DNA of 11,801 nucleotides from a virus. The DNA lies in the UHGV virus genome UHGV-0074586. One strand, given 5' to 3'. The notes beneath the pieces were generated by a model. That model worked only from the letters and a program-made list of their open reading frames with translations, searched no databases and was not told the DNA's origin. Position numbers and translations under genes: made by a program. Positions 2,247 through 11,801 of this stretch are shown in pieces. Position 1 is the stretch's first letter; each line of letters begins with the position of its first letter.

Positions 2247-3123
2247 GTTAGCTGATTACAGGCATAACCCTGTACAACATCAGGAGGCATCCAGTATGGG
2301 GTATGTCTCTATACACCGCCAGTTTATGGACAGCAGGCTCTATAAGGACTCTCAGGCAGTACATCTTTGGCTTCACTTAATCCTCAAGGCTAATCACGAA
2401 TCTACTGTCGTCAATACGGATATCGGTCCGATAACTGTTGATCGCGGTCAGATGATAACTGGACGCCCGTCGCTGGTCAGAGAAACATTCATCCCCGACA
2501 ACAAAGTTCGGAGCTTATTACGGACTTTTGAGTCGAAAGGGATGCTTAATATTTGCTCGATGGGGAAGAAATTTAGCCTGTTTACAATCGTTAAATATGA
2601 CGATTTTCAGGCAAAAAATTGTCCAACGGTTGTCCAACGGTTGTCCAACGCAAACACCAGTAATGGCGAGGCTCTCAGCGGAGATTGTCCAACGGTTGTC
2701 CAACGGTTGTCCATAAACAATAATATAAATAATATCTCTAATACTGACGTATTAGAGAGTGCCACAGCAGACAAAAAGTCTGACAAGAAAAAACCTTCCG
2801 TTAGCTGTCAGGATGTTGTCGATGCTTACCACGAAATCCTTCCTGAAGCGCCAAGAATCCGCGCACTGAATGACAAGCGTAAAAACCAGATCCGAACGTT
2901 CTGGCGCAAAGCCGGAGTGATAACCCGCCAGCTTGACGGGCATGGGTTCACGATGCAGGACTGGAGAAATTATTTGAGCTACGTAGGCGAAAATTGCCGA
3001 TGGATGTTCGAAGAGCGTCCAAACCATCAACGCGGAACCGTCTGGCACAAAAAGGGATTTGATTTCCTGCTTAACGACAATACCTACCTGAAAGTTCGTG
3101 AGGGTGAACACGATGACCGATAA
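2233..3123 (+). CDS. O-like replication initiation protein (iteron-binding), origin embedded in the gene
   Basis: 296 aa. AGGAG at 2222..2226 precedes ATG 2233. Position after cII, internal iterons and translational coupling to a DnaB-type helicase indicate a lambda O / P22 gp18 analogue. Not sequence-similar to lambda O as far as I can recall. Confidence 0.7.
   Translation: MGVVKLADYRHNPVQHQEASSMGYVSIHRQFMDSRLYKDSQAVHLWLHLILKANHESTVVNTDIGPITVDRGQMITGRPSLVRETFIPDNKVRSLLRTFESKGMLNICSMGKKFSLFTIVKYDDFQAKNCPTVVQRLSNANTSNGEALSGDCPTVVQRLSINNNINNISNTDVLESATADKKSDKKKPSVSCQDVVDAYHEILPEAPRIRALNDKRKNQIRTFWRKAGVITRQLDGHGFTMQDWRNYLSYVGENCRWMFEERPNHQRGTVWHKKGFDFLLNDNTYLKVREGEHDDR
2619..2717. repeat. origin iterons: two clusters of three tandem 11-bp repeats TTGTCCAACGG (2619..2651 and 2685..2717)
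   Basis: Direct repeats with 11-bp periodicity, last copy of each cluster degenerate, clusters separated by about 33 bp, followed by an AT-rich stretch. They fall in the linker of the O-like protein (repeated translation PTVVQRLSN). Confidence 0.8.
2713..2760. promoter_or_regulatory. AT-rich DNA-unwinding-element-like tract flanking the iterons
   Basis: ataaacaataatataaataatatctctaatactgacgtattagagag is almost pure A/T directly 3' of the iterons, the classic lambdoid ori layout. Confidence 0.5.
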
Positions 3124-4549
3124 TTTTTATGCGCCGCCCCATAGCATCGAGGCAGAGCAGGCGGTGATTGGTGGATTGCTTCTGGATGATGACAGCAGTG
3201 AGCGCGTCCAGAAAGTTCTGGCGATGCTGAAGCCTGACTCATTTTACAGCCGGCCACACAAAATCCTTTTCGAAGAAATAACCAGAATGCACCGGGAGCA
3301 AAAGCCAGTAGATGGCCTGACGCTTTTCGATGAGCTGGAGCGTAAATCGTTAACGGCGTCTGTTGGCGGTTTTGCTTATATCGCTGAGATCGCAAAGAAC
3401 ACGCCAAGCGCAGCAAACATCGTTGCCTATGCAATGCAGGTTCGTGAAACCGCAATGGAACGCTACGCCATCAACCGCATGACTGAAGCGACGGAATTGC
3501 TCTATTCCCGCAACGGAATGACTGCAACACAGAAGTACGAAGCTATTCAGTCGATTTTCACGCAACTGACAGACCATGCAAAAACCGGATCGCGTCGCGG
3601 CCTTCGCTCATTTGGTGAGGTCATGGAAGACTGGGTTAGCGACCTTGAGAAGCGATTTGACCCGTCAGGCGAACAACGAGGAATGAGCACAGGGATCCCA
3701 TCGCTGGACAGGATGCTGTCACCGAAAGGTCTGGTGAAAGGCTCTCTGTTTGTCATTGGCGCTCGCCCTAAGATGGGGAAAACGACGCTATACAGCCAGA
3801 TGGCAATCAATTGCGCAGTGCATGAGAAAAAGCCAGCTCTGATGTTCAGCCTTGAAATGCCAGGTGACCAGATACTGGAAAAACTGGTAGGGCAGAAGTC
3901 TGGTGTTAACCCGAATATTTTTTACCTTCCGGCGACAAATGACGCCGATGACGGCTATCAGGGTGATTACGATGGCGACTTCAACAGGGCGATCGAAACA
4001 GCAAATCGCTTGAGTGAAATCGACCTGCTTTACATCGACGACACGCCGGGATTATCTCTGGCTCAAATCGTCAGCGAAAGCCGTCGAATCAAGCGAGAAA
4101 AAGGATGTGTTGGCATGATTCTGGTCGATTACCTGACACTAATGACCGCTGAGAAGGCCGATCGCAACGACCTTGCTTACGGCATGATCACCAAAGGACT
4201 GAAGAACCTTGCCAAAGAGCTTGATTGCGTTGTTGTGCTTCTGACACAGCTTAACCGCGCACTGGAAAGCCGAACCAATAAACGCCCATTACCAAGTGAC
4301 TCACGAGATACAGGGCAGATTGAACAGGATTGCGATTATTGGGTGGGGATCCATCGTGAAGGTGCTTTTGATGACAGCGTTCCTCCTGGTGAAACCGAAC
4401 TAATCCTTCGCCTCAATCGTCATGGCAATACCGGCACGGTGTATTGCATACAGGCAAATGGCGCTATTTATGACACAGACCAACAGTCTGCTGAAATGCG
4501 CCGCCGTGAACGCGAGGAACCGCAGTCCAAGAAGAAAGGAGGGTTCTGA
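3113..4549 (+). CDS. DnaB-family replicative helicase (P22 gp12-type)
   Basis: 478 aa with a DnaB N-terminal signature (HSIEAEQAVIGGLLLD), Walker A GARPKMGKT and a RecA-like C-terminal core. ATG 3113 overlaps the O-like stop (3121..3123); GAGGGTG lies upstream. The ORF-track GTG at 3098 is less likely. Confidence 0.9.
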   Translation: MTDNFYAPPHSIEAEQAVIGGLLLDDDSSERVQKVLAMLKPDSFYSRPHKILFEEITRMHREQKPVDGLTLFDELERKSLTASVGGFAYIAEIAKNTPSAANIVAYAMQVRETAMERYAINRMTEATELLYSRNGMTATQKYEAIQSIFTQLTDHAKTGSRRGLRSFGEVMEDWVSDLEKRFDPSGEQRGMSTGIPSLDRMLSPKGLVKGSLFVIGARPKMGKTTLYSQMAINCAVHEKKPALMFSLEMPGDQILEKLVGQKSGVNPNIFYLPATNDADDGYQGDYDGDFNRAIETANRLSEIDLLYIDDTPGLSLAQIVSESRRIKREKGCVGMILVDYLTLMTAEKADRNDLAYGMITKGLKNLAKELDCVVVLLTQLNRALESRTNKRPLPSDSRDTGQIEQDCDYWVGIHREGAFDDSVPPGETELILRLNRHGNTGTVYCIQANGAIYDTDQQSAEMRRREREEPQSKKKGGF

Positions 4550-4653
4550 TGACCATCTACATCACTGAGCTAATAGCAGGGTTATCGTTACTAATGGTTC
4601 TTACTGTATATATTATTAAGTATATTCTTTATGCGAATAAAAAAACTAATTGA
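4549..4653 (+). CDS. 34-aa hydrophobic single-pass peptide, translationally coupled to the helicase stop
   Basis: ATG 4549 overlaps the helicase TGA (4547..4549) with AGGAGG at 4538..4543. Product MTIYITELIAGLSLLMVLTVYIIKYILYANKKTN. Caveat: AT-rich DNA yields hydrophobic ORFs by chance. Confidence 0.3.
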   Translation: MTIYITELIAGLSLLMVLTVYIIKYILYANKKTN

Positions 4654-5242
4654 TCACGATGAGCTTCTGTCAACATTATCATATGACTCAGAAACAGGAA
4701 TATTTAAATGGCTAAAAACAAATTCAGTAGTAAGAGTAAAAGGTAGTATTGCTGGAGGTGTTAGTGGTGGTTATATATGCATTAGCATAAATAATGTTTT
4801 GTATTATGCGCATAGACTTGCTTGGTTCTATGTATACAAAAAATGGCCTCCTAAGTTTATTGATCATGTAAATGGGAACAGACTTGACAATAGGATTTCA
4901 AATCTAAGACTGGCAACAGAAGAGCAGAATGCAAGAAACATTGTAGGGAATAGGTTAAACACATCCGGTGCGATTGGAGTGTCTTGGTATAAGCCAACTG
5001 GCAGGTGGAAGTCTTATGTTGGTTATAAAAATAAGACAATATCGTTAGGGTATTTCGATAGCAAAGAAGATGCAGCATTCATAGCAGCACTAGCAAGAAA
5101 GAAACTATATGGAACTTATGCGAGTAAAGCACTTAATTGCGAGCATGAGCTTTTATCTCAATTTAATAATGATGAGGATAAACTTGCGGAATATCTTAAG
5201 GAAAAATCTAAAAGGACTCGAAAGCGTGTTAAAAAAAGATAA
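4631..5242 (+). CDS. HNH homing-type endonuclease with C-terminal AP2 DNA-binding domain
   Basis: HNH motif (YYAHRLAWF...IDHVNGNRLDNRISNLRLATEEQNARN) and AP2-like segment (GVSWYKPTGRWKSYVGYKNKTISLGYFDSKEDAAFIAA). The gene sits in a visibly AT-rich island unlike its neighbours. Confidence 0.85.
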   Translation: MRIKKLIDHDELLSTLSYDSETGIFKWLKTNSVVRVKGSIAGGVSGGYICISINNVLYYAHRLAWFYVYKKWPPKFIDHVNGNRLDNRISNLRLATEEQNARNIVGNRLNTSGAIGVSWYKPTGRWKSYVGYKNKTISLGYFDSKEDAAFIAALARKKLYGTYASKALNCEHELLSQFNNDEDKLAEYLKEKSKRTRKRVKKR

Positions 5243-7441: not shown

Positions 7442-7626
7442 ACGCCACAATTCAAACGATACCAGAGCTTCTTATCCAGACACGAGGCAATCAGACCGAA
7501 GTGGCGAGGATGCTTTCCTGCGCAAGAGGAACAGTGCTCAAGTACAACCGAGACAGCAAAGGCGAGCTTCACGTAATAGTTAACGGCGTCCTGATGGTCA
7601 AACAGGGCAAGAGGGGAAGACGATGA
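7438..7626 (+). CDS. ninH: NinH
   Basis: 62 aa with the ...GNQTEVARMLSCARGTVLKY...VIVNGVLMV core matching lambda NinH. ATGA overlaps on both sides. Confidence 0.8.
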   Translation: MNATIQTIPELLIQTRGNQTEVARMLSCARGTVLKYNRDSKGELHVIVNGVLMVKQGKRGRR

Positions 7627-8111
7627 GCATAAGAGAACTAAACCTCACCAAAGAGCAGCACGAGTGGCTGAATGGCTGGCTTGAACTGTGGGGCGCATGG
7701 GTTTATTCAGGTCGTCTGGAAAAGCGCATGAGCAGCGTAATAGCGAAGTTCATGGAGAGCGTAGAGCCGGGAAGAGTTATGACAAGGCCAATGTGCAATG
7801 ATGATGATGGAATGTTGATTTCTCAGGTCGTCGATTCCGTCATGTACATTGACAAGAAAGCCTTTGGAATCCTCCTCAGCTACTACGCTCATGGCTCTTC
7901 CAAGCACGCCATTGCATCTTACTATCATCGCGTCGCAAGACCTCGCAAGATGTTATGCCGTGGCGGCGGGCGCATTCAAAAACCATCGCTCGCAACCTGT
8001 CGACGGGAAGTTGACGAAATCCTTAATGCCTCGTTGTTTATGATTTACCCGGTTCTGGATAGTGCGTTTAAAAACCGGAAACGTGTAGAGAAAATTAAAC
8101 ATGTAGCATAG
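7623..8111 (+). CDS. Q-like late-gene antiterminator (non-lambda Q type)
   Basis: 162 aa, last gene before the lysis region. WGAW...RPMCNDDDGMLIS...YYAHG motifs resemble the Q proteins of 933W/82-type phages, not lambda Q. Assigned from memory and position. Confidence 0.65.
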   Translation: MSIRELNLTKEQHEWLNGWLELWGAWVYSGRLEKRMSSVIAKFMESVEPGRVMTRPMCNDDDGMLISQVVDSVMYIDKKAFGILLSYYAHGSSKHAIASYYHRVARPRKMLCRGGGRIQKPSLATCRREVDEILNASLFMIYPVLDSAFKNRKRVEKIKHVA

Positions 8112-8117
8112 AACGTG

Positions 8118-8198
8118 TTGACATCATTGAGCAAATGAGCAACACTATTGGCATAAGCTGCCGTTAGTGACTCTTAAGTTGCAACGGTGGCTTTTTTT
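8118..8198 (+). promoter_or_regulatory. candidate late promoter (consensus -35 TTGACA at 8118..8123) followed by a hairpin plus T7 run (8157..8198)
   Basis: Perfect TTGACA 7 nt after the Q stop; no convincing -10. Stem GCTGCCGTT/AACGGTGGC (two G-U pairs, 17-nt loop) is followed by TTTTTTT ending 5 nt before tRNA 1. Confidence 0.3.
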
Positions 8199-8202
8199 AT
8201 TT

Positions 8203-8277
8203 GGGTCAGTCGTATAAAGGTCATTACTGAAGGCTGTTAACCTTCTTATCGTGGTTCGAGTCCACGCTGTCCCGCCA
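8203..8277 (+). tRNA. tRNA-Asn (anticodon GUU), phage-encoded
   Basis: Hand-folded cloverleaf: 7-bp acceptor stem with one T-T mismatch, perfect anticodon stem GAAGG/CCTTC with loop CTGTTAA, perfect T-arm CGTGG-TTCGAGT-CCACG, encoded CCA. The D-stem has only 3 pairs. Confidence 0.6.
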
Positions 8278-8282
8278 AATAT

Positions 8283-8358
8283 GCTGGTTTAGCTCCAATG
8301 GTAGAGCAGTCGCCTTGTAAGCGAATGGGTAGCGGTTCAAGTCCGTTAACCAGCACCA
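8283..8358 (+). tRNA. tRNA-Thr (anticodon UGU), phage-encoded
   Basis: Hand-folded cloverleaf: perfect acceptor stem GCTGGTT/AACCAGC, D-arm GCTC-CAATGGTA-GAGC, anticodon loop CTTGTAA, T-arm AGCGG-TTCAAGT-CCGTT, discriminator A and CCA. Confidence 0.7.
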
Positions 8359-8519
8359 TAACTGAGCCGTAGCCACTGGCTATCCTGAATTCATCAGTGA
8401 TAGTTATGCTGCGGCCTTCTACACATGACCTTCGTGAAAGCGGGTGGTTCAATTCTGCTGCCTTCTTCACGTTAAAAGAGGAATTAGGCTTCGAAAATGC
8501 AAAAACTTGCAAAAATGAC

Positions 8520-8548
8520 TTGAAAACGAGTTTTGAAACTGCATAATT
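8520..8548 (+). promoter_or_regulatory. sigma70-like promoter (TTGAAA, 16-bp spacer, CATAAT) preceded by phased A-tracts
   Basis: -35 at 8520..8525, -10 at 8542..8547 with a TG just upstream. The preceding 40 bp holds repeated TGCAAAAA/TTGAAAAC A-tracts at roughly helical phasing (8492..8526). Confidence 0.35.
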
Positions 8549-8630
8549 CCTATATGCTCGGACGTCAAAGGCGAAAGAGCTTACCCACCAGCGAAGATGC
8601 CTTGTGCGGAGCGGTGGGAAACACATTCAA

Positions 8631-8658
8631 GCCCTTGCAGAAATGCAGGGGCTTTTTT
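8631..8658 (+). terminator. strong rho-independent terminator in the leader upstream of the insertion operon
   Basis: 9-bp stem GCCCTTGCA/TGCAGGGGC (one G-U pair) with GAAA tetraloop, then TTTTTT. It lies 30 nt upstream of the first operon ATG and inside the ORF-track 5' extension that starts at TTG 8533. Confidence 0.7.
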
Positions 8659-8688
8659 ATTGGCTCAGTGCCACCAGGTGAACACCGT

Positions 8689-9240
8689 ATGCACACGGCG
8701 ATCATTTGCGCTTCCGGACCTTCCCTCACCCACGACGACTGCCAGAAAGCCATTGGCGCTGGATTACCCGTTATTGCGGTGAATTCTTCATGGCGCGCGG
8801 TGCCGGGATGCTCTCACATTTACGCGGGTGATCTGCGCTGGTGGGATGTGAACATTCCCGCGCTGCCCGATGGCCCCGAACGCTGGTCATGTAACCGGAG
8901 AGCACACACCCGATACGGCGTGAGCCTCTTCCCGACAGATACCAGCGGCACATTCAATTCGGGGCAGAGAGCAATCCTGTTCGCTCACTGGCTGGGTGCC
9001 AGTAGCATCATCCTGCTGGGCTTCGATTGCTCAATCTCAAACGGTAGTCACTGGCACGGCGATCACACAGTCCTCGATAACCCGACAGCAGCGAACGTAA
9101 AGCGCTGGCATGGCGAGTTTGCCCGGGTTGCGGCGCAGCTGCGTGGAAGCGTCAATATCATCAACAGCAGCCGCCAGACGGCGCTTAATTGCTTTCGTCG
9201 CTTACCTCTTGAAGCTGCGATCAGCGAGGTTACATGCTGA
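8689..9240 (+). CDS. hypothetical protein with Cst/GT42-like (DUF115/MptE-like) CMP-ulosonate transferase-fold signatures
   Basis: 183 aa from ATG 8689 (AGGTGA 7 nt upstream). IICASGPSL...PVIAVNSSW and FNSGQRAILFAHWLGASSIILLGFDCSISNGSHWHGDH parallel the GNGPSL, RCN, TSG...LGY...LSGIDFY and SHYIGH motifs of Campylobacter Cst-type sialyltransferases as I recall them. Fold-level inference only. Confidence 0.45.
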   Translation: MHTAIICASGPSLTHDDCQKAIGAGLPVIAVNSSWRAVPGCSHIYAGDLRWWDVNIPALPDGPERWSCNRRAHTRYGVSLFPTDTSGTFNSGQRAILFAHWLGASSIILLGFDCSISNGSHWHGDHTVLDNPTAANVKRWHGEFARVAAQLRGSVNIINSSRQTALNCFRRLPLEAAISEVTC

Positions 9241-10175
9241 ATCCTCCGATTTACATCGATGGCATGCTGGGAATGGGAGATACCATTTACCAGCGCGCTT
9301 TCGTCAAACAACTGCCTGCTGGGACATTCATTAAGACGGCATGGCCGGAGCTTTACGAAGATCTGCCGGTGAAAGTTGTCCGAAGTGACACCACGCTCAG
9401 AACGCAGCGTAAAAATGAGTTTCGCAGTTCGGCAAAGTTTTATCCGCCGCCATCGCCACGACAGACGAAGCGAATATTTTACGGACCGTATGATCTGCGG
9501 CGCGGTTCGATATTTGATGCGATGCGACGCCAGTTCGGCGTAACGCCAGCAGCGCTTGATTTGCCATCCTTTGGCCCGTCGCAGTTTACGCACCAAAAGC
9601 CGATCGCCGTTATCCGTCCGGCAACGGTTCGTTCTGAATGGCGTAGCGACTCCCGAAACCCTGACCCCGATTACCTCCTGCGCGCATCGAGAATCCTGCG
9701 GAAACATTTCTGCGTGATTAGCGTTGCTGATTTGCAGGACGGGGAAGAGTGGCTGGTGGGCGAAGAACCAGAGGCGGATCTGAAAATGCACGCTGGCGAG
9801 CTCAATATCAAAGAGCTGATGCGCCTGGTTGAGCATGCCGCTGTCGTGGTTACGCCTGTTGGCTGGGCGCTGCCCGCTGCCATTGCGTACAAAACACCTG
9901 TTTACGTTGTCGCTGGTGGGCGCGGTGGGCATAACGCTCCCGAGATAGTCACCGATCCGGCGATGGATTTATCCCGCGTTGGCTGGGCAATCCCGGACAA
10001 TTATTGTCGCTGCGAAGCGTGGGATCACCATTGCGACAAACGCATCTTCAACTTTGATTCAAAATTCGAGACATGGCTGAATGAAGTCGTTTTATCAGGA
10101 ACTGAACAGCGGGCTGGTATTCCTCCCGGAGCTGGGCATCGGTCGTTATCCGGTTCCGGCATCACGCCCGTATGA
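9234..10175 (+). CDS. hypothetical protein with glycosyltransferase family 9 (ADP-heptose:LPS heptosyltransferase)-like fold; 3' boundary uncertain
   Basis: ATG overlaps the upstream stop (ATGCTGA). N-terminal IYIDGMLGMGDTIYQRAFVKQL and C-terminal ELNIKELMRLVEHAAVVVTPVGWALPAAIAYKTPVYVVAGG follow the GT9 pattern, but the canonical DTGPMHLAAA motif is replaced by TPVGWALPAAIA. The ORF runs 95 nt into the next gene. Confidence 0.45.
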   Translation: MLNPPIYIDGMLGMGDTIYQRAFVKQLPAGTFIKTAWPELYEDLPVKVVRSDTTLRTQRKNEFRSSAKFYPPPSPRQTKRIFYGPYDLRRGSIFDAMRRQFGVTPAALDLPSFGPSQFTHQKPIAVIRPATVRSEWRSDSRNPDPDYLLRASRILRKHFCVISVADLQDGEEWLVGEEPEADLKMHAGELNIKELMRLVEHAAVVVTPVGWALPAAIAYKTPVYVVAGGRGGHNAPEIVTDPAMDLSRVGWAIPDNYCRCEAWDHHCDKRIFNFDSKFETWLNEVVLSGTEQRAGIPPGAGHRSLSGSGITPV

Positions 10176-10690
10176 CGAGCAGTATTTCGCGAAGTATCAG
10201 CAGCTTGCCGACACCGAAACGGGCAGAGCCTTAACGCAATCCCGTATTGAGCTGGTGGCGCGCCATTTTCACGGTCCTGTTCTCGACGTTGGTATCGGTG
10301 CCGGTCAGTTCGTCTCTACCCGACCGGGAACGCTTGGGTATGACGTTAATCCGGCTGGTATCGCCTGGCTGAACGAGCGGGGCGCATTCGCTGACCTCTA
10401 GTCAGGGGCGCGCGCTGACGATGTGGGATGTCCTGGAGCACATCGACGAGCCGGAGCTGGCGGTACAGCAGGCTACAGAGTTTGTTTTCGTGTCGATCCC
10501 CATTTTTACCGATGCCGGAGACATTCTTCGCTCGCACCATTTCAGGAAGAACGAGCACATCTGGTATTTCACTGACGACGGTATTAAGCGCTGGTTTGCA
10601 GAGCAGGGCTTCGAATGCGCTGAACAGAACACAATCGAATGCCAGTTAGGGCGTAAGGGCGTCGCTTCGTACGCTTTCCGCCGCGTTTAG
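10081..10690 (+). pseudogene. class I SAM-dependent methyltransferase split by a frameshift near 10395..10402
   Basis: ORF 10081..10401 carries motif I (VLDVGIGAGQF) and an acidic beta-2 end (GYDVNP). ORF 10421..10690 in another frame carries the DVLEH motif. The frame upstream of 10421 reads ...SSQGRALTMWDVLEH, so one indel just before the TAG at 10399..10401 would restore a single protein of about 200 aa. Confidence 0.6.
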
Positions 10691-10764
10691 TCCCCTCTTA
10701 GCCCATTGCATTTGGGTTTATTCCAGTTTCGCACACATCACCCGCAAACAGGCGAGGTCAACCT

Positions 10765-10923
10765 ATGAATAGCTCTCACGGGATTTTTGAACAAACCATG
10801 AAATGGATCGCGCTATATCTGCCGTCAGTTTACGCCGGGTTATGCGCTCTGGGCATCTCAGCGCTTATCGACATACGCGCAGGGAAGCCGAAACTCTACA
10901 CCGCCACTGGCGCGCTAAATTAA
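10765..10923 (+). CDS. 52-aa small membrane protein immediately upstream of the holin gene
   Basis: GAGGT at 10754..10758 is 6 nt upstream of ATG 10765. Product MNSSHGIFEQTMKWIALYLPSVYAGLCALGISALIDIRAGKPKLYTATGALN has one predicted TM helix. Its stop coincides with the point where lambda-like sequence resumes. Confidence 0.45.
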   Translation: MNSSHGIFEQTMKWIALYLPSVYAGLCALGISALIDIRAGKPKLYTATGALN

Positions 10924-10954
10924 ATAGAGCAAATCCCCTTATTGTGGGTAAGAC

Positions 10955-11278
10955 ATGAAGATGCCAGAAAAACATGACCTGTTAGCCGCCATTCTCGCGG
11001 CAAAGGAACAAGGCATCGGGGCAATCCTTGCGTTTGCAATGGCGTACCTTCGCGGCAGATATAATGGCGGTGCGTTTACAAAAACAGTAATCGACGCAAC
11101 GATGTGCGCCATTATCGCCTGGTTCATTCGTGACCTTCTCGACTTCGCCGGACTAAGTAGCAATCTCGCTTATATAACGAGCGTGTTCATCGGCTACATC
11201 GGTACTGACTCGATTGGTTCGCTTATCAAACGCTTCGCTGCTAAAAAAGCCGGAGTAGAAGATGGTGGAAATCAATAA
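10955..11278 (+). CDS. S: holin S (S107/S105 dual-start class I holin)
   Basis: 107 aa, essentially lambda S as I recall it. Met1-Lys2-Met3 dual-start motif at 10955..10963 and a CCCC...GGG stem upstream. Confidence 0.95.
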
Positions 11279-11738
11279 TCAACGTAAGGCGTTCCTCGAT
11301 ATGCTGGCGTGGTCAGAGGGAACTGATAACGGACGACAGAAAACCAGAAATCATGGTTATGACGTCATTGTAGGCGGAGAGCTATTCACTGATTACTCTG
11401 ATCACCCTCGCAAACTTGTCACGCTAAATCCGAAACTCAAATCAACAGCCGCCGGACGCTACCAGCTTCTTTCCCGTTGGTGGGATGCCTACCGCAAGCA
11501 GCTTGGCCTGAAAGACTTCTCTCCGAAAAGCCAGGACGCTGTGGCATTGCAACAGATTAAAGAGCGTGGCGCTTTACCGATGATTGACCGCGGTGATATT
11601 CGTCAGGCAATCGACCGTTGCAGCAATATCTGGGCTTCACTGCCGGGCGCTGGTTATGGCCAGTTCGAGCATAAGGCTGACAGCCTGATTGCAAAATTCA
11701 AAGAGGCTGGCGGAACGGTCAGAGAGATTGAGGTATGA
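11262..11738 (+). CDS. R: endolysin R (lytic transglycosylase)
   Basis: 158 aa, essentially lambda R as I recall it ([39 protein letters not shown]...). Start overlaps the end of S as in lambda. Confidence 0.95.
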
Positions 11739-11801
11739 GCAGAGTCACCGCGATTATCTCCGCTCTGGTTATCTGCATCATCGTCTGCCTGTCATGGGCT
11801 G
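11735..11801 (+). CDS. Rz: spanin Rz, 5' partial (runs off the right edge)
   Basis: ATGA overlap with the R stop. N-terminus [22 protein letters not shown] matches the lambda Rz signal-anchor. Confidence 0.85.
   Translation, partial: MSRVTAIISALVICIIVCLSWA

Follow-up and report, generated by a model that had tools for sequence, protein, structure and literature searches.

The window analysed in this work, that is, the whole stretch of 11,801 nt of the virus genome UHGV-0074586, is part of the late region of a lambdoid prophage. A moron of three genes (8689-10690) sits between the Q and tRNA genes on one side and the lysis genes on the other. Directly downstream of it lies a short open reading frame (ORF) that the initial annotation had described as a small membrane protein positioned before the holin. 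The features of the locus are as follows.

7623-8111: Q antiterminator gene (PF06530).
8203-8277: tRNA-Asn.
8283-8358: tRNA-Thr.
8448..10917, + strand: donor segment of 2,470 bp, in place of 116 bp of the backbone's tRNA-to-S spacer.
8448..8546, + strand: left-end remnant, the last 33 codons and the stop codon of the donor Q-position gene.
8689..9240, + strand: cassette gene 1, 183 aa, MptE-like/DUF115 (PHROG 4603, labelled 'alpha-2,3-sialyltransferase').
9234..10175, + strand: cassette gene 2, 313 aa, PHROG 6804, without a Pfam match.
10081..10690, + strand: cassette gene 3, SAM-dependent methyltransferase, 204 aa in relatives and split here.
10754..10758, + strand: Shine-Dalgarno sequence GAGGT of the remnant, 6 nt before its ATG.
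10765..10923, + strand: ORF of 52 codons, 3'-truncated remnant of a lambda-family (class I) holin gene (51/51 aa identity with the parent, 92% with the phiNP holin, weak match to PHROG 126).
10804..10875, + strand: codons 14-37 of the ORF, its sole hydrophobic helix, equal to transmembrane domain 1 (TMD1) of the parent holin by hydropathy.
10913..10922, no strand: right recombination junction, from alignments with donor, backbone and lambda.
10918..10954, + strand: retained lambda-type S leader, with a short stem (10936-10938 paired with 10946-10948) just 5' of the dual start.
10955..11278, + strand: intact lambda-type holin gene S, 107 aa, with the Met-Lys-Met dual start (PF05106, 105 bits; TIGR01594, 127 bits).
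11262..11738, + strand: lambda R-type endolysin gene, 158 aa (glycoside hydrolase family 104 according to the annotation of the matching backbone).

An Rfam scan of the window revealed nothing beyond the two tRNAs. The S gene at 10955..11278 is the predicted functional holin gene of the element. Cassette genes 2 and 3 overlap by 95 nt, and some gene callers put an antisense ORF of 289 aa (9063..9932) in place of cassette gene 2.

The ORF at 10765..10923 (+ strand) starts with ATG and encodes the 52-aa product MNSSHGIFEQTMKWIALYLPSVYAGLCALGISALIDIRAGKPKLYTATGALN. As the initial annotation had proposed, it carries a ribosome-binding site (GAGGT, 10754-10758) and one predicted transmembrane helix (residues ~14-37). 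The Kyte-Doolittle mean over 19 residues peaks at 1.76 in this hydrophobic stretch. Among the 58 ORFs of the window that start with ATG and have 40 aa or more, only ~3% reach this value. The distance of 32 nt to S that had been given for it is a matter of counting: the gap to the ATG of S107 (10955) is 31 nt (10924-10954), and 32 is obtained from the last base of the stop codon to the ATG. The 52-aa product has no Pfam or NCBIfam match at E <= 1, so that it reaches the threshold of no curated family in these collections. Against the PHROGs a single match was obtained, to PHROG 126 (holin/anti-holin; E = 0.0058, 17.5 bits, profile positions 6-55 of 114), the family to which lambda S belongs.

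The identity of the ORF became clear from its full-length relatives. Codons 1-51 (10765-10917) are identical in 51 of 51 amino acids to the N-terminus of a 110-aa holin, WP_142455769. This protein scores 59.2 bits with PF05106 (cut-off 23.8) and 55.5 bits with TIGR01594 (cut-off 55.05), and on these scores we regard it as a true member of the lambda holin family. By sequence homology the ORF thus descends from a lambda-family class I holin (PF05106/TIGR01594). When it was compared by tblastn with 50,697 phage records, matches were found on holin genes only and always on their N-terminal halves; they included the holin of Citrobacter phage phiNP (92% aa identity over residues 1-51), those of Salmonella phages SEN4 and SEN5 (56%) and those of P88-like phages (43%). 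A word-indexed homologue search with the 52-aa query did not recover the full-length cluster; the six proteins that it returned included a variant and two further truncated forms. A 315-aa PheS-like protein placed in the same 90% cluster was set aside as a clustering artefact.

Class I holins have three TMDs, with the N-terminus out and the C-terminus in, and a charged cytoplasmic C-terminus (PMC10865782). Of these elements the 52-aa product has one hydrophobic segment (14-37) alone; the next hydrophobic stretch of the parent (residues ~42-71) is cut at residue 51, and the C-terminal tail is absent. The helix and the link to holins that had been suspected are thereby both supported, in the form of a truncated holin. 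The ORF is, by homology, the in-frame 5' part of a real gene and no chance ORF.

The point of truncation was located by alignment of the window with phage lambda (NC_001416), with the prophage of E. coli 203740 and with the holin gene of E. coli I3. The E. coli 203740 prophage matches the backbone of the window (order Q, tRNA-Asn, tRNA-Thr, S, R, Rz), its positions 3050-3884 corresponding to 7613-8447 of the window and its positions 4001-4884 to 10918-11801. Three independent comparisons and the alignment with lambda agree that lambda-type sequence starts at 10918. At the right junction the window follows the donor (...GCGCTA) up to 10917 and continues with lambda-type AATTAAATAG; in the alignment the donor reads GGCGCGCTAATATGCGG, the lambda type reads TTCCTAATTAAATAGAGC and the window reads GGCGCGCTA / AATTAAATAGAGC. 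The crossover lies inside a CTAAT pentamer common to both parents, plus one extra A. The boundary noted in the initial annotation is therefore real, while its position has to be corrected: lambda-type sequence does not resume at the end of the ORF, and the ORF ends 6 nt inside it. It follows that the last codon (codon 52, AAT, 10918-10920) and the TAA stop (10921-10923) are supplied by the lambda-type S leader. BLASTP aligned the donor holin with the resident S over donor residues 46-107 only (TMD2, TMD3 and tail), at 28% identity and with donor residue 46 opposite S residue 44. In this register the break falls near residue 49 of S107, where TMD2 begins.

A gene fragment likewise forms the left end of the insert. 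Positions 8448-8546 encode ...FNSAAFFTLKEELGFENAKTCKNDLKTSFETA followed by a stop codon, which are the last 33 residues of WP_136698480, a 227-aa protein without a Pfam or NCBIfam match whose gene occupies the Q position 5' of the cassette in E. coli LHM10-1. In the window this remnant is joined in frame to the backbone, giving a chimeric ORF of 49 aa (8397..8546). Two crossovers inside the genes that flank a transplanted block would be expected to leave such fragments at either end, as seen in the 2,470-bp insert. A promoter-like site (TTGAAA, a 16-nt spacer and CATAAT; 8520-8547) overlaps the end of the left remnant, and about 80 nt 3' of it there is a strong hairpin that, with its T-run, resembles a terminator (8629-8654). 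Both elements are kept in the donors, and they look like a late promoter/terminator unit of the donor that has been orphaned from its antiterminator. In the window this putative unit stands downstream of the promoter-like and terminator-like sequences of the backbone proximal to Q (8118-8200).

We then compared positions 10600-11000 with 5,426 complete RefSeq E. coli genomes by megablast, and the query split in two. The part up to 10918 matched in 4 of the 5,426 genomes, where a gene annotated 'phage holin, lambda family' comes after the methyltransferase gene. The part from 10915/10918 onwards matched in more than a thousand of the genomes, at the start of lambda-type S. No match among these genomes spanned the junction. 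When the junction region was compared with phage records, the lambda-type S part alone matched, and no cassette-bearing phage record was obtained. The donor arrangement is represented by E. coli I3, in which an antiterminator gene is followed by the genes for the 183-aa and 313-aa proteins, the 204-aa methyltransferase, the 110-aa holin WP_142455769, a GH19 endolysin and the spanins. Positions 8524-10918 of the window are 99.5% identical in DNA to this genome, the similarity stopping at 10918, and positions 8444-10916 are 82% identical to LHM10-1, where the cassette likewise precedes the full holin and a GH19 endolysin. The donor holin gene overlaps the start of the GH19 endolysin gene.

Look-ups with the cassette proteins of the window showed that one cassette occurs in two architectures. 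In the first, the cassette is followed by the 110-aa holin, the GH19 endolysin and spanin-region genes; in the second, by the 52-codon stump, S107 and R. Both the 110-aa holin and the stump occur with exactly the same 313-aa cassette protein: it accompanies the full 110-aa holin in five numbered loci (L025, L027 and L030-L032) and others, and the stump was found solely where lambda-type S comes next. The full-length holin follows the cassette in 19 loci from E. coli, Pantoea and other Enterobacteriaceae (three contigs being counted more than once). Among species-representative genomes, the cassette with the full holin is present in Pantoea stewartii, an Enterobacteriaceae metagenome-assembled genome (MAG) and an assembly labelled Chryseobacterium, and it is present also in many draft genomes; in E. 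coli, Pantoea and the MAG the moron is tied to the module of 110-aa holin and GH19 endolysin. The assembly labelled 'Chryseobacterium sp. 18061' (CACSKA010000001.1) bears an enterobacterial module, with 95% aa identity in the holin and 67-93% in the cassette proteins, and is probably contaminated or mislabelled. A 68%-identical holin without the cassette occurs in Winslowiella.

These two architectures bear directly on the suggestion that the ORF is a true, small member of the cassette that might, for instance, anchor the MptE-like, 313-aa or methyltransferase protein in the membrane or act as its partner. The ORF is indeed the last coding element of the insert, and in the recombinant phages it goes with the cassette in every case. 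In the ancestral arrangement, however, the same codons are part of the 110-aa holin gene; homologous holin N-termini occur without an upstream cassette (phiNP, 92%; SEN4/SEN5, 56%; P88-like phages, 43%), the cassette having been looked for and found absent upstream of the phiNP and SEN5 holins; and the last codon and stop come from lambda-type DNA. A dedicated cassette gene is thus very unlikely. The proposed anchor for the transferases is refuted by the 19 loci in which these codons begin a full 110-aa holin. The description of the ORF as the last gene of the insertion holds in so far as it is the last element of the inserted DNA, which is a holin remnant and no independent gene. It does not co-occur with the transferase genes as a discrete gene either, since identical cassettes carry the full 110-aa holin instead.

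As to the cassette itself, the 'sialyltransferase' gene and two hypothetical genes of phiNP were considered as the same cassette, and this was ruled out by BLASTP. An unannotated ORF of phiNP (7802-8329 of the fetched locus), located between Rz and the annotated 'alpha-2,3-sialyltransferase' gene, is 50% identical to cassette gene 1, and phiNP may therefore have two DUF115-like genes 3' of its lysis module.

The junction is not confined to the window. It was found in 17 distinct other contigs, coming from NCBI, JGI, ENA, Logan and IMG/VR; ORF and junction are base-for-base identical to the window in 16 of them and differ by one base in the 17th. An exact 34-mer across the junction had one match in IMG/VR, one in the metagenome collection and none in the collection with one genome per species. 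In the assembly collection, 61 indexed blocks contain the 52-aa protein in exactly this form, which has been deposited as 'MULTISPECIES: hypothetical protein [Enterobacteriaceae]'. In all ten places listed for it the order is cassette, 52-aa ORF, S107, R and Rz, and these places vary in Q (162-aa, 172-aa and 207-aa types), in the replication genes and in the genes downstream. Four metagenome or virome contigs of about 40.9 kb that bear the junction look like complete phage genomes.

Such recurrence speaks against a chance ORF or an assembly artefact. The window does carry a private lesion, and some sequence error in it is possible: relative to its relatives it lacks 5 bp at about 10399 (ACGCC in the relatives) and shows a G/T difference at 10406 (region 10395-10410). 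The deletion splits the 204-aa methyltransferase gene into ORFs of 106 and 89 aa; the gene is intact in all 12 related loci, and the deletion may be either a real pseudogenisation or an assembly error. The ORF and its junction, on the other hand, are identical in 16 of the 17 other contigs from independent assemblies and keep the frame of a real gene, and an artefact is improbable in the extreme.

A single base separates the two forms of the holin sequence upstream of its start. Position 10759 is G (GAGGTG) in every full-length copy and C (GAGGTC) in every 52-aa copy, a strict dichotomy. The one shared junction, together with this private C in all stumps, points to a single origin of the truncated form. 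Known with one junction only and elsewhere part of a holin of about 110 aa, the 52-aa form was not found as the independent gene that an antiholin would be. A second, independent stump (P0010, 48 aa) arose from this holin through a large deletion that cut it at codon 26 and joined it to tail genes, which indicates that stumps of the donor holin gene arise as debris. It lies in a defective prophage (Logan ERR3209434_77; 5001-5147 of the fetched locus) that has lost its lysis and head genes and has tail-tube genes joined directly to the stump.

Taken together, it is close to certain from these comparisons that the ORF originated by truncation of a holin gene. The initial annotation held that neither of the roles it considered could be settled from sequence; comparative sequence settles the origin. 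The product of these codons is not a new kind of element and is best described as a truncated copy of a known family, generated by the well-known mosaic recombination of lambdoid phages.

To gain a clue to whether the stump is maintained by selection, we counted segregating sites in the window and 12 related loci. There is 1 in the 159 positions of the ORF, 4 in 840 of cassette gene 2, 4 in 324 of S and none in the two flanking spacers. The sole variant in the stump, S4Y, is non-synonymous. The diversity of the ORF is similar to that of its neighbours, the substitutions being too few to tell constraint from neutrality, and the junction is evidently young.

One alternative is that the stump has been co-opted as a modulator of lysis timing, as an antiholin or decoy acting on S105/S107 or through upstream translation that shifts the S107:S105 ratio. 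In one version, a late peptide consisting of TMD1 only would associate with S105/S107 and delay or sharpen triggering; in the other, termination of translation 31 nt 5' of S would alter the leader stem and thus shift the ratio. The stump lies in the late operon and has retained a Shine-Dalgarno sequence and an ATG. None of the copies examined, from many mosaic backgrounds, is broken. Dimerising partners are known to influence the timing of holins (reviewed in PMC6116005 and PMC9636201), and the stop codon of the stump is just 12 nt 5' of the leader stem (10936-10948). Several observations speak against such a role. BLASTP gave no detectable similarity between TMD1 of the donor and TMD1 of the resident S, and the fragment made by lambda Sam7 does not block complementation by S105-GFP (PMC10865782). 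The fold of the leader region is no more stable than that of shuffled sequence (z = 0.18). The only variant of the stump changes an amino acid, the Shine-Dalgarno match is shortened in all stumps (GAGGTG to GAGGTC), and the diversity of the stump is no lower than that of adjacent genes. We consider a role in lysis timing unlikely. If it were true, a domesticated stump would explain the unbroken persistence of the junction across mosaic phage backgrounds, and would show a holin being regulated in nature by a fragment of a foreign holin; nothing found points there.

The leader stem itself varies between phages. At 10935-10949 the sequence is CCCCTTATTGTGGG in the window and in E. coli 203740, versus CCCCTTATTGGGGG in lambda. 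The variant is predicted to shorten the stem and could change the S107:S105 ratio.

The explanation that we favour, with a probability of about 0.85, is that the ORF is a remnant without a dedicated function, the scar of a recombination event. The donor would have been a lambdoid or P22-like phage with a Q-position gene, a late leader, the three-gene cassette, the 110-aa holin gene and the GH19 endolysin gene. A piece of 2.47 kb from this donor would have entered a lambda-type late operon by recombination, in its tRNA-to-S spacer, with one crossover within the donor Q-position gene and the other within the donor holin gene at codon 51/52, at the CTAAT microhomology. The holin frame would then run one codon into the lambda-type S leader and stop at TAA. 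Lying in the Q-dependent late transcript with its Shine-Dalgarno sequence and ATG kept, the stump is probably transcribed and may be translated; its product would be TMD1 with a short basic cytoplasmic tail (RAGKPK...). TMD1 of lambda S is reportedly required for holin function, as the title of White et al. (2010), cited in PMC6116005, has it. From established holin biology, a product without TMD2, TMD3 and the charged C-terminal domain would be unable to form holes, and the intact S107/S105, R and Rz encoded downstream would bring about lysis. The persistence of the stump is most likely explained by its closeness (31 nt) to an essential gene and by the recent origin of the junction.

Two observations count against a mere remnant. 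The stump is intact, with a usable ribosome-binding site, in all 17 distinct other contigs of varied background, and it is present in the seemingly complete phage genomes of about 40.9 kb. Such wide retention fits selection, and it is equally expected of a young junction tightly linked to S.

For annotation, the 52-aa product should be entered as a truncated holin or a pseudogene and not as a novel small membrane protein. The locus also provides a clean, datable example of a moron cassette that moved between two lysis modules with both crossovers inside genes, the donor module consisting of the 110-aa holin and GH19 endolysin and the recipient module of lambda S, R and Rz.

Among known systems, the closest relatives of the stump are the holins WP_142455769 and that of phiNP, with which residues 1-51 are identical or 92% identical, respectively, and with which it shares the ribosome-binding region and the position at the head of the lysis module in the late operon. 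It differs from them in lacking residues 52-110 (TMD2, TMD3 and the charged C-terminus) and in being followed by another complete holin gene and not by its own GH19 endolysin gene.

A second parallel is the product of lambda Sam7, an amber mutation at codon 56 of S that makes the phage lysis-defective; S105-GFP supplied in trans complements Sam7 lysogens (PMC10865782). Both the stump and the Sam7 product are N-terminal holin fragments that end at the start of TMD2 and come from the late transcript. Sam7, however, is a laboratory nonsense allele of the sole holin, which abolishes lysis, whereas the stump derives from a second, diverged holin beside an intact S. The complementation by S105-GFP argues against strong interference by a comparable fragment, and on this analogy neither lysis nor strong interference is expected of the 52-aa product.

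Small membrane proteins encoded beside a holin gene in the late operon are also found among the separate antiholins (T4 RI/RIII, P1 LydB and P2 LysA) and in S107. In contrast to this likeness in position, the stump has no sequence relationship to T4 RI/RIII, P1 LydB or P2 LysA, and the antiholin S107 is S105 with two additional N-terminal residues and not a truncation as the stump is.

In its origin the stump resembles the junction remnants of mosaic lambdoid phages; in phage CUS-3, the 241 bp upstream of S are annotated 'bsq3; boundary sequence'. Like such junction remnants, it marks a crossover in the conserved spacer 5' of S, with a foreign block beside it and partial genes at both ends. 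Unlike the CUS-3 boundary, its junction lies off the annotated edge, 37 nt before S, and involves no more than the CTAAT microhomology.
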